From a phage, in sequence record PZ452596.1: 64,000 nucleotides of DNA; one strand, 5' to 3'. Made by a program: the position numbers and the translations under genes. Each line of letters begins with the position of its first letter. The first letter of the stretch is position 1. Below the pieces are notes generated by a model, which saw only the letters and a list, made by a program, of their open reading frames with translations, was not told where the DNA came from and searched no databases. Shown here one piece after another: positions 31,528 through 40,737 of the stretch.

Positions 31528-32001
31528 TTATTTGAACGATTTAACGTACTGAATAGAACCTTTACTATTCACAAAGGCAATTTTACCATTTTTGTTATAC
31601 ATGGTAGCAGTACGTTGATAGCCATAAGTTTGTTTACCAGATTGATAACCAACTAATGCAAAATTATCTTCACCCATTTTATTCTGTTTAGCGCGAATAC
31701 GTTCATGACCATGTGCCATAAGAACCTTAGCATCACCAGTTGCAATGGATCGACGAGTTTTTTCATCTTCAACTGTATTAACAAAGTCGTCAAATGAATC
31801 AAATTTAGCATGAGATTTATTATATAGTTTTCCATCTACTGCATAATTATATCCTTGTACATCCATCTCAACTTCTGTACCATCATCCAGTACAGCAGTG
31901 ATTTTCTGTCCTTTTTTAAATTTCAAAAGATCAGTAAAAGATTCAGCAATAATTTGAGAACTAATAGCTGCTTCAGTAATAAATTCTTGATATGTTTTCA
32001 T
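31528..32001 (-). CDS. internal protein (IPIII/IPII-like) with capsid targeting sequence
   Basis: 157 aa; N-terminus MKTYQEFITEA is the T4 internal-protein CTS with a gp21-type LxE cleavage context. Confidence 0.65.
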   Translation of the reverse strand: MKTYQEFITEAAISSQIIAESFTDLLKFKKGQKITAVLDDGTEVEMDVQGYNYAVDGKLYNKSHAKFDSFDDFVNTVEDEKTRRSIATGDAKVLMAHGHERIRAKQNKMGEDNFALVGYQSGKQTYGYQRTATMYNKNGKIAFVNSKGSIQYVKSFK

Positions 32002-33912: not shown

Positions 33913-34286
33913 CGTGATTCCTTAACAAATTTCATAATTTCATCAAATTCATACGCAGCAAGTTTAAGCTGATGTTCCTTTTTAATCTTTTTACACTGTG
34001 CTTTCCAATCACGTACGCGTTTACGATAATGCCTTCCTTGATACCAGTATCCTACCCAATTTACAGGTACTAATAAAAATGGAACTATCATTGGAAGAAT
34101 TAGTGTTGACGCAAATATTATATTAGATTCAATATTAGTCATAACATCTATAACTATTCCAACCCCCAGTAGAATTACAAATGATACAGCTATTACAGGA
34201 CCTATTAATACATCAGTAGAAATTATCTGACGCTTTAATTCATACTTTAAGGGTTTACTTGGAAGATACATTGATGGCTTTGACAT
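33894..34286 (-). CDS. membrane protein, family with conserved C-terminal motif
   Basis: 130 aa; hydrophobic helices; ends MKFVKESRCKSQN. Confidence 0.5.
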   Translation of the reverse strand: MSKPSMYLPSKPLKYELKRQIISTDVLIGPVIAVSFVILLGVGIVIDVMTNIESNIIFASTLILPMIVPFLLVPVNWVGYWYQGRHYRKRVRDWKAQCKKIKKEHQLKLAAYEFDEIMKFVKESRCKSQN

Positions 34287-34863
34287 ATTCTCTGCATTCC
34301 TTCACAAATTTTTCTAGTAATAAATCGCTTTCAAAATTGGGATTTTCTACGAATTTATCAAAAAGATCATCAACAATAGTTAAGATATTCTTTTTACTAA
34401 GAATACGTTTATTTTCATGCTTCGTTTCAGAATCAACTATAAGAGTAAAGAAATATTTCTTTCCCTGAAATTTTACCGTAGTATCAATATAGAATAAATT
34501 TGACTTTTGTAAGTTACGTTTAAACCATGCGTCACTTAAACTATAAACGCCAAGATAATCATAATCGTCGTTTAAATAACAAACTGTCCATTCAGGAGAA
34601 ATGAAATCAGTAAATTCAACATCAAAATCACATGTTAATAAATGAATTGATTCAATACTGTTAATAAGTATTCCAGGACGTATTAAAGACTTTTTACCTC
34701 TAGAAAATCTTCCAGAAAGACTTTCATCAGTTTCATATGAAGAACCCCAATAATAATTACGCCCTTCTGCCATACGTTTAAGAGCATTTAATAATTGGTC
34801 TGGAACATCAACCTGTCTTTGGAACTCTTCAAACATTGAATTGAAATCACTTTGCATTTTCAT
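34255..34863 (-). CDS. hypothetical soluble protein with the same C-terminal motif
   Basis: 202 aa; C-terminus EKFVKECREYVKAIN. Confidence 0.5.
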   Translation of the reverse strand: MKMQSDFNSMFEEFQRQVDVPDQLLNALKRMAEGRNYYWGSSYETDESLSGRFSRGKKSLIRPGILINSIESIHLLTCDFDVEFTDFISPEWTVCYLNDDYDYLGVYSLSDAWFKRNLQKSNLFYIDTTVKFQGKKYFFTLIVDSETKHENKRILSKKNILTIVDDLFDKFVENPNFESDLLLEKFVKECREYVKAINVSSK

Positions 34864-34904: not shown

Positions 34905-35498
34905 TTATTTCAGAGAATTAATATATTCCTGAACATCGGCAGAGGTAGTTTCAACCCCAGAAATATTACCATTAAAGGTTTCAACTCGAGCAAGAGTATC
35001 TTCAATATCAACCTTAGTCAGTGCTGCAATTTCAACTACATCATCAGCAGTACTAATTCCGAGAGCATTTGCTGCGCGAGTTTCACGGATATATTCCAAT
35101 TTAACTGCAAGTTCTTGACGAGCATCATCTAACTCAACTACTTTCTTGGCGATTTCAATTCGCATTTCAGCATACCCATCAGCTTTAGTAGTCAACTGCT
35201 CAGCTGTTCGACGATATAGCAAACCGAGCTTAGCGTGCATTGTTACATCTTGACCTTCAGAAAGGAGCTTGCGAATTTCGCGCTCTTTTGATTCGGCTTG
35301 TCGATTCTTTTCAATAACAAGTTCACGAATACGTTTTTCTTCATTAATAGATTTAACAGAAGCAGTTTTTAGGTCTTTAATTTTATCAAGTAATTTTGCT
35401 GCTGCAGCAGTGTACTGTTCTTCAACAGATAGATTTTTAGCCATAGCAGAACCAAGTTTAGTGCGAATAAACTCAACAATTTTCTTCAGCATGTTCAT
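34905..35498 (-). CDS. coiled-coil protein, PspA/IM30-like (tentative)
   Basis: 197 aa; heptad-rich helical sequence with DTLAR segment; resemblance to PspA family is by eye only. Confidence 0.4.
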
Positions 35499-35961: not shown

Positions 35962-36225
35962 TTATTTCATATTATTGAAATATTCTTCAGCAATTTCATC
36001 ATTATCATGATAAACTTTAGAAGACAGTTTAACATAACCTTCTGCTGCGAACATGTTAATCACAACCTTTACAGTATACCACTGACCGTCTTCATTACCC
36101 ATTACTGCATAGGTTTCAAACATCGGATGATCAGGACCGATAACTTTAATATCATTCACTGTACGACCAAAATCTTCTGAAACACATTTCATAAAGAAGT
36201 TGAACAGTTCGCCGTAATTATCCAT
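35962..36225 (-). CDS. hypothetical protein
   Basis: Start at ATG 36225 behind GGAG RBS (MDNYGELFNFFMK...); track ORF start lies inside the promoter. Confidence 0.45.
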   Translation of the reverse strand: MDNYGELFNFFMKCVSEDFGRTVNDIKVIGPDHPMFETYAVMGNEDGQWYTVKVVINMFAAEGYVKLSSKVYHDNDEIAEEYFNNMK

Positions 36226-36298: not shown

Positions 36299-36427
36299 CG
36301 TTTTGTGAAAAAATTTTTAAAAAGTTTTGGGGAATTCTAGGGCAGGGAGAGGAAATTAAAAGGTAGGATAATATATTATAAAGGGTATAAACTAAATGAT
36401 GCCTAGAGAGGCCCGGAAAGGCCTAGA

Positions 36428-36462
36428 TACCAAAAAGCCCCAACCTTTCGGCTAGGGCTAAG
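36428..36462 (-). repeat. 35-bp direct repeat copy A containing terminator hairpin
   Basis: TACCAAAAAGCCCCAACCTTTCGGCTAGGGCTAAG; differs from copy B at one stem position. Confidence 0.7.
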
Positions 36463-36466
36463 AATG

Positions 36467-36928
36467 TTATTTGATTTGTTTAGCAGACCAAATGCGGTCT
36501 TTGATGATTTTTTGGAGGTCTTCAACATACTCTAGGTCATGAGCATGTGGATTATCTTTGAAACTATGAGCTCGCGCAAGTTTCTGGCCTTCGGTCTTAA
36601 TTATCAAAAGTTCTTTAAGAATTGCTTCATACCTAGAGATAATTCCTTTAGCAATATTTTTTTCTTGTGCTGCTTTAGGGTCAGCCTTAGGAGCAGGTTT
36701 ACCAGAAGGTTTTTCGAAAGCCGCGCCAGTAGCAACCAGGCTTTTCCAGGCGGTGGTAACATAGTTACCCACAAAGCCTTCAGCTCTCATATCGTCGTAG
36801 AACTTGTACCGAGATTCGTCAGAAGCATCTTTATAAGAATATTTACCAGCTTTAATAGCAGCAGTTGCTACAGCGCGAACATCTGAAGCGGATGCTTCGG
36901 TCATTAAAAATTGAGCATAAGTTTTCAT
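36467..36928 (-). CDS. internal-protein-like gene with capsid targeting sequence, flanked by direct repeats
   Basis: 153 aa; N-terminus MKTYAQFLMTEA fits the internal-protein CTS; Ala/Lys/Pro-rich middle; sits between repeats A and B. Confidence 0.55.
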   Translation of the reverse strand: MKTYAQFLMTEASASDVRAVATAAIKAGKYSYKDASDESRYKFYDDMRAEGFVGNYVTTAWKSLVATGAAFEKPSGKPAPKADPKAAQEKNIAKGIISRYEAILKELLIIKTEGQKLARAHSFKDNPHAHDLEYVEDLQKIIKDRIWSAKQIK

Positions 36929-36962
36929 TGTTATTTCCTGTGTTAATTAACTCATCTATTTA

Positions 36963-36997
36963 TACCAAAAAGCCCCAACCTTTCGGCTGGGGCTAAG
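36963..36997 (-). repeat. 35-bp direct repeat copy B; rho-independent terminator of the tRNA/small-RNA transcript
   Basis: Minus strand AGCCCCAGCC-GAAA-GGTTGGGGCT followed by TTTTT. Confidence 0.7.
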
Positions 36998-37021: not shown

Positions 37022-37310
37022 CCACCTGCTAAGGCAAGTGTTTGTACGAAACGCCGGGATTCGAACCCGGTTATTAAGCAGTTGACGCTACTCAATATTT
37101 TTAAAAGGCCATATCTCGACCATATCCGAACGTTCCGTCAAAAACGCTACTCGGCTTACGGCAAAGATATTTCCTCGAATCGATAATTCGGTGCGCCGTT
37201 TCTGCTGTGATATAAGAGGACATTAACAAAACATAAAGATTTATTAATGCCAGTCCTTAAACAGGGAACATCAGTCCGACGACTTGCCGGTAGCGACCCG
37301 GCTTCTTGTC
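37022..37310 (-). ncRNA. small stable RNA region (T4 species 1/2-like, tentative)
   Basis: About 290 nt with no ORF between tRNA-Arg and the terminator; has a tRNA-like T-arm (CCGGGTTCGAATCCCGG) and repeated GAGTAGCGT boxes; boundaries not resolved. Confidence 0.35.
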
Positions 37311-37386
37311 TGGTCGAGGCAGTAGGGATCGAACCTACGACCCAGGACTTAGAAGGTCCTTGCTCTTCCTTCTGAGCTATGCCTCG
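37311..37386 (-). tRNA. tRNA-Arg (anticodon UCU)
   Basis: Hand fold: acceptor CGAGGCA/TGCCTCG, anticodon loop CTTCTAA, T-arm GTAGGTTCGATCCCTAC, encoded CCA. Confidence 0.85.
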
Positions 37387-37390
37387 GATT

Positions 37391-37465
37391 TGGCGGACGT
37401 GATAGGATTCGAACCTATAACCAATCGCTTAACAGGCGATCGCTCTGCCATTGAGCTACACATCC
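37391..37465 (-). tRNA. tRNA-Asn (anticodon GUU)
   Basis: Hand fold: acceptor GGATGTG/CACGTCC, anticodon stem ATCGC/GCGAT with loop CTGTTAA, T-arm ATAGGTTCGAATCCTAT, CCA. Confidence 0.8.
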
Positions 37466-37469
37466 AAAT

Positions 37470-37556
37470 TGGTGGGGAGTGATGGAGTCGAACCACCCGA
37501 GTCGCAATGACAATGGATTTACAGTCCACACCGCTACCTCTACGGGATAACTCCCC
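37470..37556 (-). tRNA. tRNA-Tyr (anticodon GUA), long variable arm
   Basis: Hand fold: acceptor GGGGAGT/ACTCCCC, anticodon loop CTGTAAA, variable arm GTCATTGCGACTCG, T-arm GGTGGTTCGACTCCATC, CCA. Confidence 0.8.
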
Positions 37557-37565
37557 TAATTAATT

Positions 37566-37640
37566 TGGTGGCCCTGGGTGGAATTGAACCACCATCTGGC
37601 GATTATGAGTCGCTTGCTTGAACCTTCCAGCTACAGGGCC
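37566..37640 (-). tRNA. tRNA-Ile (anticodon CAU, lysidine-type reading AUA)
   Basis: Acceptor GGCCCTG/CAGGGCC; anticodon stem-loop GCGACTCATAATCGC as in E. coli tRNA-Ile2; T-arm GGTGGTTCAATTCCACC; CCA. Confidence 0.8.
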
Positions 37641-37641
37641 T

Positions 37642-37717
37642 TGGTGCTGATTGACGGAATCGAACCGCCGACCTTCTCATTACAAGTGAGTTGCTCTACC
37701 TACTGAGCTAAATCAGC
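37642..37717 (-). tRNA. tRNA-Thr (anticodon UGU)
   Basis: Acceptor GCTGATT/AATCAGC; anticodon loop CTTGTAA; T-arm GGCGGTTCGATTCCGTC; CCA. Confidence 0.85.
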
Positions 37718-37722
37718 AAAAC

Positions 37723-37812
37723 TGGCGGAGGCGATAGGATTTGAACCTATGAGTCGCCGGAGCGACTGCCGGTTTTCAAGACCGGTGCATTAAACCACTC
37801 TGCCACGCCTCC
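37723..37812 (-). tRNA. tRNA-Ser (anticodon UGA), long variable arm
   Basis: Acceptor GGAGGCG/CGCCTCC; anticodon stem CCGGT/ACCGG with loop CTTGAAA; T-arm ATAGGTTCAAATCCTAT; CCA. Confidence 0.85.
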
Positions 37813-37814
37813 AG

Positions 37815-37888
37815 TCTCCATACAAGGATTTGAACCTTGGACCTCCTGATCCCAAATCAGGCGCTCTACCAAACTGAGCTACACGGAG
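37815..37888 (-). tRNA. tRNA-Pro (anticodon UGG), no encoded CCA
   Basis: Acceptor CTCCGTG/TATGGAG (two G-U pairs); anticodon stem CCTGA/TCAGG with loop TTTGGGA; T-arm CAAGGTTCAAATCCTTG. Confidence 0.8.
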
Positions 37889-37898
37889 TAAATTAAAT

Positions 37899-37972
<74 letters not shown>

Positions 37973-37977
37973 AAATT

Positions 37978-38064
37978 TGGTGCGAGAAGTGGGACTCGAA
38001 CCCACAAGGAAATCATTCCGCAGCATTTTAAGTGCTGTGCCTTTACCAATTTGACCATTCTCGC
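37978..38064 (-). tRNA. tRNA-Leu (anticodon UAA), long variable arm
   Basis: Acceptor GCGAGAA/TTCTCGC; anticodon stem CAGCA/TGCTG with loop CTTAAAA; T-arm GGGTTCGAGTCCC; CCA. Confidence 0.85.
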
Positions 38065-38065
38065 G

Positions 38066-38138
38066 CTGGGAATAAAGGACTCGAACCTTTGCATCTAGCA
38101 GTCAAAGTGCTATGCCTTACCAACTTGGCTAATTCCCA
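38066..38138 (-). tRNA. tRNA-Gln (anticodon UUG), no encoded CCA
   Basis: Acceptor TGGGAAT/ATTCCCA; anticodon stem TAGCA/TGCTA with loop CTTTGAC; T-arm AAAGGTTCGAGTCCTTT; 1 nt from tRNA-Leu. Confidence 0.85.
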
Positions 38139-38224: not shown

Positions 38225-38740
38225 TTAAAGCAAATCAACCATTTTAACAGTCGGCAAAACAATTTCTTCTTCGATATAAGCAAATTCTACATGTTCAACT
38301 ACACGCAAGAAATCATATTCATAGTATTCAGAAGCATGACCAAGAATATCAATGAGGCCTTCAGATATCTTATTACCATTCACAAAGAATAAATCAAATA
38401 CACGTTCTTCATCTTCTTCGGATTTATTACCAAGGTCAACTTCTATATCAAAGACCTTTTTAATGAATTCTGGATAAAGTTGGTCTGAGAACAGTCCTTC
38501 AACCAAATATTCATATATAAAAAGCTCTTGCTCGCTGAACAACCCATTACCACAATAACGGTCAGCTTTAGTACTAGAATGACGACTCTTAAACTTCTTC
38601 AAAAGATATTTAAATTGTTGGAGCTCATGCTCTTCTACGCCAAACAGTGTTTTGGTTTTATAGTTATCACCATCATTTTCCCAGGTAGTGACATCAATTA
38701 CGTAACCCTTAGGAATTGTGCTGCCTAAACGAATATACAT
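38225..38740 (-). CDS. hypothetical protein
   Basis: 171-aa acidic ORF upstream of tRNA cluster. Confidence 0.5.
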   Translation of the reverse strand: MYIRLGSTIPKGYVIDVTTWENDGDNYKTKTLFGVEEHELQQFKYLLKKFKSRHSSTKADRYCGNGLFSEQELFIYEYLVEGLFSDQLYPEFIKKVFDIEVDLGNKSEEDEERVFDLFFVNGNKISEGLIDILGHASEYYEYDFLRVVEHVEFAYIEEEIVLPTVKMVDLL

Positions 38741-39600: not shown

Positions 39601-39628
39601 TTTATTCTCCTCAGTAGTTGATAGGGTA

Positions 39629-39658
39629 ATAGTATCACTACTAAAACCCTATGTAAAC
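39629..39658 (-). promoter_or_regulatory. early promoter
   Basis: Minus strand TTTCACAAAGTT-GTTTAC, 18 nt, TGATACTAT within palindrome TAGGGT...ACCCTA. Confidence 0.55.
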
Positions 39659-39677
39659 AACTTTGTGAAATTGTTTA

Positions 39678-39968
39678 TTACAAAAGATTTTTAGCAATAA
39701 TCTTGAGATGTGCTGCAGAAATGTGTTTAGCTTTAAACAACGCAGTTTCTTCAGCAGGAGAGATAACGATTGTAGCACCATCCTTTTTAGCAGACCACCC
39801 ATCACCTAAGTAAACAGTACCTTTGATTTCTTCGCCATCAACCAGACTAATCATTGGTTTACCTTCTCGTCCTTTATTTGCTTTAATAACTTCAGAAGTA
39901 AGAGTAGCTTCGGTAATGGTAGAAACCGGGGTAGTTGTAGTAGAAGTAAATTCTTTAAATGTTTTCAT
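39678..39968 (-). CDS. internal protein I-like (CTS-bearing, injected protein)
   Basis: 96 aa; N-terminus MKTFKEFTS... with ITE-A cleavage context; position upstream of 57B as for T4 ipI. Confidence 0.6.
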   Translation of the reverse strand: MKTFKEFTSTTTTPVSTITEATLTSEVIKANKGREGKPMISLVDGEEIKGTVYLGDGWSAKKDGATIVISPAEETALFKAKHISAAHLKIIAKNLL

Positions 39969-39998
39969 TTTATTTTCCTAATTAATTTTGATGAGGTA

Positions 39999-40028
39999 AT
40001 AGTATCACTACCTCATCAACGTGTAAAC
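39999..40028 (-). promoter_or_regulatory. early promoter upstream of IPI-like gene
   Basis: Minus strand GTTTAC, 18 nt, TGATACTAT inside palindrome GATGAGGTA...TACCTCATC. Confidence 0.55.
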
Positions 40029-40040
40029 AACTTTGTGAAA

Positions 40041-40737
<697 letters not shown>

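Follow-up and report, generated by a model that had tools for sequence, protein, structure and literature searches.

RB27_136, a small gene of Enterobacteria phage RB27, probably encodes an unnamed internal head protein (Ip) of the T-even type. The gene would form a late cassette, and its product would carry a capsid-targeting tag, be injected into the host, and probably neutralize a host defense. This reading is given a probability of about 0.6, and packaging of the product in the head, taken by itself, is considered quite likely. The family is unnamed and uncharacterized. It is present in roughly two thirds of sequenced T4-like coliphages and in none of the three laboratory models, which is why it has neither a name nor an assigned function. 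Since T2, T4, and T6 are all without the gene, classical genetics never came across it.

The DNA analyzed, referred to here as the window, is a 64-kb stretch of the RB27 genome (KM607000.1), and each window coordinate is the record coordinate minus 30322. RB27_136 is a complete CDS on the minus strand (36467..36928) with an ATG start, encoding 153 amino acids plus a stop, and is annotated as a 'hypothetical protein'. Its translation opens MKTYAQFLMTEA (MKTYAQFLMTEASASDV...), exactly as in the original prediction, which also had the reading frame and length correct. PHROGs assigns the protein to phrog_2280, 'unknown function'. Its upstream neighbor is the small RNA gene rnaC (species 1 RNA; 37045..37183, minus, from the RB27 annotation), with which the tRNA cluster ends. 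Its downstream neighbor, e.8 (35962..36225, minus), has its own sigma-70-like promoter at 36297-36269. Homologs were found by tblastn in 512 of 50,697 phage records, with coverage of >= 80% in 470, and among the matches listed they are annotated as hypothetical or 'Phage protein', or carry no annotation. The family has a dN/dS of 0.04-0.19 over 15 pairwise comparisons and is under strong purifying selection. These values, together with the presence in 512 records, identify RB27_136 as a real gene.

The protein is composed of four parts. Codons 1-11, MKTYAQFLMTE (36896..36928, minus), make up a propeptide resembling a capsid targeting sequence, as judged by comparison with the T4 Ips and the rules in PMC9026906. 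Residues 12-70 (36719..36895, minus) form a small, helical N-domain with a GKYSYKD motif, the part that is conserved across genera. A Lys/Pro/Ala-rich linker, EKPSGKPAPKADPKAAQEKN, spans residues 71-91 (36656..36718, minus) and is predicted with low confidence. Residues 92-153 (36470..36655, minus) make up a C-terminal helical hairpin that is near-invariant in coliphage orthologs and has a different sequence in Klebsiella phages. The AlphaFold2 model has a mean pLDDT of 73. In this model, residues 1-11 are disordered, the N-domain helices are at 14-26, 37-49, and 55-67, the low-confidence linker covers about 71-91, and the long helical hairpin is formed by 84-120 and 129-150. The predicted mature product is 15.7 kDa, with a pI of 9.38 and 13.4% Lys, compared with a pI of 9.0-9.65 and 13-16% Lys for mature IpI-III.

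At the sequence level, the label 'internal-protein-like' is well supported for RB27_136. The gene has a targeting N-terminus with Y4 and F7 and encodes a small, basic, Lys-rich mature protein. Late expression is indicated by TATAAATA after a terminator, an arrangement conserved across genera, and the gene is dispensable and patchy among close relatives. The T4 N-termini, read directly, are MKTYQEFIAE/A for IpII and IpIII and MKTFKEF...ITE/A for IpI, where the slash marks the cleavage site. As summarized in PMC9026906, Mullaney & Black (1996) found the initial 10 residues of IPIII, MKTYQEFIAE, to be enough for packaging. The same source gives most weight to residues 4 and 7 for targeting and to residues 8 and 10 for processing. 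It also states that gp21 cleaves after the Glu of L/I-x-E and that a processing-defective tag can still target. In MKTYAQFLMTE, Y4, F7, and L8 are present and Glu is at position 11, so the match to the T4 targeting sequence claimed in the original prediction holds at the positions that matter. The putative cleavage context is L8-M9-T10-E11/A12, with Met at P3 and Leu at P4, which is non-canonical relative to L/I-x-E. Targeting of RB27_136 is predicted, and its cleavage by gp21 is uncertain because the canonical motif is missing.

Most orthologs have a canonical LNE, LTE, or LAE site. The commonest alleles begin MKSYAQFLNE(V/A)VLNE, giving the ortholog form MKSYAQFLNE..LNE/A, and one of the N-terminal alleles is MKSYAQFLNEAVLNEA. 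The RB27 allele seems to derive from the commoner form by the loss of four residues. More distant relatives also have N-termini ending in (L/I)xE, namely MKSYAQFLNEVVLNE/A, MKSYAEFLTE/Q, MKFKEFLAE/A, MLKFNEFLAE/G, and MISFNEFVDGNLITE/S. Within the window, three genuine genes have an N-terminus of this type: RB27_136, Ip4 (31528-32001), and IpI (39678-39968). The latter two are annotated and belong to PHROGs named 'internal virion protein'. If RB27_136 behaves like IPIII, its first ~11 residues would take it into the prohead core, and gp21, the prohead protease, would probably trim it after Glu11, leaving a basic protein of 15.7 kDa (pI 9.4, 13% Lys). The trimmed protein would be packaged with the DNA and then injected into the next host.

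Beyond the leader, RB27_136 stands apart from the other Ips. Its mature part showed no similarity to IpI, IpII, IpIII, Ip4, or the second cassette described below (cassette B), and Ips as a class share only the leader (PMC12373910). No family for it was found in Pfam or NCBIfam, and a sequence search of the PDB returned only noise (E > 1). Only T4-like phage relatives and chimeric fragments came out of two large protein searches, one word-indexed (5.8 billion proteins) and one an exhaustive profile search (1.84 billion representatives). The protein database search proposed in the original prediction gave no link to a known family. One weak match, to the 869-aa repeat protein P0019 (E = 4e-4), was set aside as compositional. 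No virion-proteomics report covering phages that carry the gene was found in the literature, including the fPS-2/fPS-65 paper, RB32ORF133c, and Tequatrovirus LC-MS.

RB27_136 is bracketed by direct repeats of 36 nt with one mismatch (36427-36462 and 36962-36997). The original prediction gave their length as 35, one base short, and was right in placing a terminator hairpin in each. The 28-nt core of the repeat occurs at only two sites in the 64-kb window, and 0/100 shuffles gave any match. On the minus strand, each copy contains AGCCC(C/T)AGCC-GAAA-GGTTGGGGCT followed by TTTTT, a hairpin with a 10-bp stem and a GAAA loop. The folding energies of the two copies are -19.3 and -21.9 kcal/mol (z = -2.5 and -3.0). 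Each copy has the appearance of a classic intrinsic terminator on the transcribed (minus) strand. The upstream copy (36962..36997, minus; GCCCCAGCC-GAAA-GGTTGGGGC plus TTTTT) is the predicted end of the tRNA/rnaD/rnaC transcription unit and is present as a single copy in T4. It is this rnaC terminator that is duplicated around RB27_136. The downstream copy (36427..36462, minus) is the predicted terminator of the cassette transcript and is followed by the e.8-side flank ..GGTAT/CTAGGCC (here and below, the slash marks the junction), like the T4 empty site. The stop codon of RB27_136 is 4 nt from the end of the lower repeat, and the ATG is 33 nt from the start of the upper repeat.

The octamer TATAAATA, the consensus of T4 late promoters, is located at 36957..36964 (minus), 28 nt upstream of the ATG. 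It straddles the junction between repeat and cassette, and its first three bases come from the end of the upstream terminator (..GGTAT). A Shine-Dalgarno-like AGGAAA (36934..36939, minus) is found 5 nt before the ATG, and aGGAAAtaa is kept in the homologous loci. In gene orientation, the layout is ...rnaC...CTTAGCCCCAGCCGAAAGGTTGGGGCTTTTTGG-TATAAATA-GATGAGTTAATTAACAC-AGGAAA-TAACA-ATG... in its 5' part and ...(153 codons)...TAA-CATT-CTTAGCCCTAGCCGAAAGGTTGGGGCTTTTTGGTAT-CTAGGCC...e.8 in its 3' part. The octamer is not enriched in the AT-rich 64-kb window (11 found vs 10.4 expected). Because the motif count is at the chance level, the evidence for this site is its position and conservation. It directly follows the terminator T-run in G8, teqhad, G50, Bas37, and Klebsiella phage Mineola as well. 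The Mineola hairpin has a different sequence (GCCCCGTCTTCGGACGGGGC), and TATAAATA is still kept after the T-run.

A promoter scan found no early, sigma-70-like promoter associated with RB27_136 or its repeat. Given this result and the order of terminator, TATAAATA, gene, and terminator, RB27_136 looks like an insulated, strictly late unit. Transcription of the tRNA genes and rnaC would stop at the upstream terminator copy. The octamer, starting in the last bases of that terminator, would drive the 153-codon gene late in infection, and the second terminator copy would end the RB27_136 transcript.

The main rival to an injected effector is a broader function in packing or ejecting the DNA. The protein would be packaged and have a structural or physical role, such as charge neutralization or organization of the DNA or help with ejection, without a specific defense target. 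This is unlikely, though several observations would suit it. The mature protein has a basic, Lys-rich composition (pI 9.4), a K/P/A-rich linker is typical of DNA-contacting tails, and by solid-state NMR the lysines of internal proteins touch DNA phosphates (PMC3012670). Strong purifying selection with conservation over three genera points the same way, as does the lack of a conditional phenotype for the Bas37 ortholog, bas37_0244, on three clinical strains. However, T2, T4, and T6 manage without the gene, the Bas37 ortholog is fully dispensable, and every T-even Ip of known function is a specific inhibitor.

It is decidedly improbable that RB27_136 is a late cytoplasmic protein that is never packaged, its tag being a non-functional relic of recombination at the 5' end, at least in the RB27 allele. 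The main targeting residues, 4 and 7, are unchanged, and targeting persists even when the sequence is defective in processing (PMC9026906). The tag-like N-terminus has been kept over a large divergence while the residues behind it change, and the chance of such an N-terminus in a random ORF is ~5e-6 by our own estimate. The RB27 allele itself favors the relic, as it is without the canonical L/I-x-E and has four residues fewer than the commonest alleles. A prohead-core accessory like gp67/gp68, targeted and then degraded or expelled so that nothing is injected, is very unlikely. Such a protein would share the targeting-type N-terminus and the predicted late expression, and the internal (L/I)xE triplets of RB27_136 (L104-K105-E106 and L132-E133 contexts) could act as gp21 sites. 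Yet RB27_136 is dispensable, heads assemble normally in T2, T4, and T6, which lack it, and its predicted folded helical domains appear more cargo-like than scaffold-peptide-like. The preferred reading is that of a packaged and injected internal head protein.

To our knowledge, all five of the T-even injected proteins studied (Ip1, Ip2, Ip3, Bas37_0260, and Alt) are specific inhibitors or modifiers of host systems. Three of them, Ip1, Ip2, and Ip3, act on GmrSD type IV restriction enzymes, each inhibiting a different one (PMC12373910). Bas37_0260, recognized by its tag alone, inhibits McrBC (bioRxiv 10.1101/2025.11.20.689424). By analogy, an anti-defense role of RB27_136 is plausible. This is the weakest step of the proposed mechanism, in which the job of the protein in the host would most likely be the neutralization of a host defense. 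No fold or sequence similarity to the characterized inhibitors IPI*, Ip2, and Ip3 was found, and the RB27_136 protein is not in the accessory-gene library of Silas et al.

The ortholog in Bas37, which is phage KarlGJung (MZ501089), is bas37_0244 (141717-142190). In the HIDEN-SEQ transposon screen, this gene was non-essential, with insertions at 29/34 TA sites (bioRxiv 10.1101/2025.11.20.689424). For insertions in bas37_0244, the comparison of K-12 BW25113 with CFT073, CFE299, and CFE303 gave log2FC values of -0.11, -0.30, and -0.14, each with an adjusted p = 1 (10.1101/2025.11.20.689424). These fitness values are those of the CFT073, CFE299, and CFE303 sheets, all for clinical E. coli strains, from a set that also includes CFE331, CFE336, and Mokosh. 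The screen is the only experimental evidence on function, and it is negative. It does not rule against an anti-defense role because Ip phenotypes are strongly strain-specific and masked by O-antigen (PMC12373910). The original prediction named the gene a strong candidate for an anti-defense effector. As worded, this went too far, being drawn by analogy only for a gene whose Bas37 ortholog is non-essential and without a phenotype on three isolates.

In T4 (NC_000866), e.8 and rnaC are in the same order, with one copy of the terminator and nothing between them. The original prediction was correct that T4 has no internal protein gene at this spot. The empty site reads ...GTTAGCCCCGACCGAAAGGTTGGGGCTTTTTGGTAT/CTAAGCC... 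RB27 and T4 have a clean 535-bp difference between e.8 and rnaC, T4 being the shorter, and the endpoints of the indel fall in the terminator repeats. The T4 sequence reads as exactly the remnant expected from recombination between the two RB27 terminator copies. The cassette unit of 535 bp would consist of the remainder of the promoter, the gene, and one terminator copy, and would come and go through homologous recombination of one terminator copy with the other, with T4, T2, and T6 as the empty product. No homolog of RB27_136 was found in T4, T2, T6, RB3, or PST.

Comparison of the locus across relatives, suggested with the original prediction, placed homologs at the same spot, just after the tRNA cluster and ahead of e.8...e.1, in Tequatrovirus, in Mosigvirus APCEc01, and in the Klebsiella Jiaodavirus Mineola, with T2, T4, and T6 empty. 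The phages that carry the family belong to at least three genera. The N-domains of RB27 and Mineola are 61% identical, and the neighboring gene e.6 is likewise 61% identical. From the shared locus across genera and the divergence matching that of e.6, we conclude that the gene appears to be old at this locus. T2, T4, and T6 are most likely deletion derivatives that lost it, and RB27 is probably not a recent recipient. The original description of an acquired, 'extra' member is probably backwards, given the 512 records, the same locus in at least three genera, and an N-domain divergence equal to that of e.6.

A second cassette occupies the same site in other phages. Cassette B contains an apparently unrelated 187-aa ORF opening MKTYAEFLTE/AAKL and is found in 165 records. 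It is present alone in WL-3, IME340, and Pu-Krd-SF6. In G50, ime09, and Bas37/KarlGJung, the RB27_136 cassette (cassette A) and cassette B are in tandem, with one terminator each. By BLASTP, the two products match in the first 13 residues only, and the hhalign comparison is not significant (E = 0.046, probability 1%). PHROGs puts both in phrog_2280. The junction into cassette A reads ..TTTTT(G/A)GTAT/AAATA (RB27 form ..GGTAT/AAATA), that into cassette B reads ..TTTTTAGTTT/GAATCAC (..AGTTT/GAATCAC), and that into the e.8 flank reads ..TTTTTGGTAT/CTAGGCC (..GGTAT/CTAGGCC). Some relatives of RB27 hold at this site a cassette with another tag-bearing gene, or the two cassettes side by side. The space between e.8 and rnaC is a cassette hotspot.

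Within one genome, the left arms of the two hairpin copies are identical or one base apart. The pair is CAGCC/TAGCC in RB27 and teqhad, CGACC twice in G8, G50, and Bas37, and CTTCC twice in APCEc01. This agreement would fit ongoing exchange between the copies or the transfer of whole cassettes with both terminators. The coliphage orthologs have two N-domain allele types (dN about 0.2) and a near-invariant C-domain. In teqhad, one N-domain type is joined to an RB27-type C-domain, which indicates recombination within the gene. In Klebsiella phages, the N-domain is retained and the C-domain is swapped for another.

RB27_136 resembles T4 IpI, IpII, and IpIII in its MKT(Y/F)xxF(I/L/T) N-terminus ending in Glu-Ala. 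Like them, it would yield a small, basic, Lys-rich mature protein, is dispensable and patchy among T-even phages, and is part of a repeat-bounded cassette. It differs from them in several respects. RB27_136 is found at a third locus, between e.8 and rnaC, whereas theirs are ipI or ipII/ipIII. It is apparently expressed late only, whereas ipI, ipII, and ipIII stand behind early-type GTTTAC...TATAAT-like promoters. Its cleavage context, L-M-T-E, is non-canonical, its mature part is without similarity to theirs, and its packaging is only predicted. The RB27_136 family is also far more conserved across genera. Bas37_0260 is a further parallel. It too is an unnamed T-even protein known by its targeting N-terminus, and the same phage carries the RB27_136 ortholog. 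Unlike bas37_0244, it is at the ipI locus and has a log2FC of about +5 between K-12 and strains without McrBC activity; bas37_0244 has no such effect.

The RB27_136 family is conserved in genera with different hmC sugars, unlike the usual fast turnover of arms-race Ip genes. This strong conservation across different hmC modifications makes it less likely that the target is a type IV enzyme specific for one sugar. A broader proposal is more tentative. The space between e.8 and rnaC would be a third T-even Ip hotspot, in which repeats of a terminator and a late promoter, a late counterpart of the PeSL (promoter-early stem-loop) element, shuffle strictly late, head-targeted cassettes, and the product of cassette A would be an effector that is injected and counters a host function independent of the hmC sugar type. 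The sugar independence is suggested by the retention of the family in glucosyl-hmC Tequatrovirus, in Mosigvirus, and in the Klebsiella Jiaodavirus. The odds are against this combined proposal. If true, the target class of cassette A would differ from the GmrSD and McrBC enzymes hit by Ip1-3 and Bas37_0260. The family is a widespread, tractable candidate injected protein and a ready candidate for finding a new host target. It is also relevant to phage-therapy cocktails made from such phages.

Polymorphic, tag-bearing internal proteins in repeat-bounded cassettes were reportedly described by Repoila et al. in 1994. Cassettes of this kind and their repeat-mediated shuffling (the PeSL model, PMC2839356, PMC4122927) are already known. 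What is new, apart from the family itself, is that the space between e.8 and rnaC is a third candidate Ip site beside ipI and ipII/ipIII, in a comparison from which Repoila et al. 1994 was absent, and that the repeat appears to be a terminator coupled to a late, not an early, promoter. PeSLs are mobile regulatory cassettes of T4-type phages (Arbiol et al. 2010, PMC2839356; Comeau et al. 2014, PMC4122927). As in PeSLs, direct repeats combining a stem-loop and a promoter surround variable ORFs and contain the endpoints of the indels, and alternative cassettes occur per site. In contrast to PeSLs, the promoter half of the RB27_136 repeat is the late TATAAATA rather than an early promoter, and the strong terminator of the tRNA/rnaC operon provides the stem-loop. 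The RB27_136 cassette should not be called a PeSL because the early promoter is missing, though it probably works like one. A terminator and late-promoter pair acting as a recombination module for candidate head-delivered cargo would extend the PeSL idea. Elsewhere in the window, RB27 ipI is flanked by 59-nt repeats (39618-39676 and 39988-40046) with 81% identity, and these contain early-type GTTTACA...TATCACT elements.

The e.8|rnaC site, which lies between gene e.8 and the end of the tRNA cluster and holds cassette A in RB27, has a second occupant in some phages. Cassette B encodes a 187-aa protein with a capsid targeting sequence-like N-terminus, starting MKTYAEFLTE|AAKL. At this site, some phages have cassette B by itself and others have both cassettes in tandem; 165 phage records carry cassette B. 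Examples are phage G50 (L008 666-1229), phage WL-3 (L007 656-1219), where it has no annotation, and Bas37, where it is bas37_0243 (L009 966-1529). In the HIDEN-SEQ transposon screen of Bas37, bas37_0243 is scored 'Essential', with insertions at 1/48 TA sites (10.1101/2025.11.20.689424). This score is odd, as cassette B is missing from T4 and absent from the RB27 window. The genes hoc, inh, and wac were likewise scored essential by HIDEN-SEQ (10.1101/2025.11.20.689424), and the call for bas37_0243 may therefore be an artefact of the method.

Two predicted proteins from metagenome assemblies are chimeras, in which pieces of the cassette A protein are joined to distant neighbour genes. P0009 is made up of the tRNA.3 N-terminus and the final 30 residues of the cassette A protein, and P0010 is composed of its residues 9-38 and NudE. 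Both look like natural multi-kb deletions that end inside the cassette A gene and remove the tRNA cluster or e.2-e.8.

The uncharacterised neighbours e.5 (window 34255-34863) and e.6 (window 34905-35498) correspond to bas37_0239 and bas37_0240 of Bas37. On uropathogenic CFT073, both counterparts were strongly depleted in HIDEN-SEQ (log2FC -3.6 and -6.5, respectively; q = 0). On CFE299 and CFE303, bas37_0239 was unchanged (log2FC -0.09 and +0.24), and bas37_0240 gave -0.39 and -1.37, respectively (not significant; 10.1101/2025.11.20.689424). This pattern points to a possible host-specific role of e.5 and e.6.

The tRNA cluster of RB27 is composed of 10 tRNAs, Asn, Tyr, and Met among them, without segB, and that of T4 of 8 tRNAs plus segB, a homing endonuclease. 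Between tRNA-Gln and tRNA.2, RB27 has an extra 171-aa ORF (RB27_137), which T2 shares and T4 lacks. The tRNA set and RB27_137 occupy window 37311-38138 and 38225-38740. A further indel within this tRNA/small-RNA region is a 116-aa ORF between rnaD and tRNA-Arg, present in several relatives, including T2 (L010 7003-7353), G8 (L002 4007-4357), and Bas37 (L009 2512-2862), and absent from RB27 and T4.

Between vs.8 and e, the single tag-bearing RB27 gene is annotated as Ip4 (window 31528-32001; 157 aa) and starts MKTYQEFITE|AA. The T4 interval holds denV, ipII, and ipIII, all missing from RB27 at this position. RB27 ipI (window 39678-39968) sits between two 59-nt direct repeats of 81% identity (window 39618-39676 and 39988-40046), each with T4 early-promoter-like elements (GTTTACA ... 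TATCACT) and a stem-loop. By these sequence features, the repeats are PeSL-like elements, resembling the promoter-early stem-loop mobile cassettes of T4-type phages. The surroundings of T4 ipI show the same repeat arrangement.
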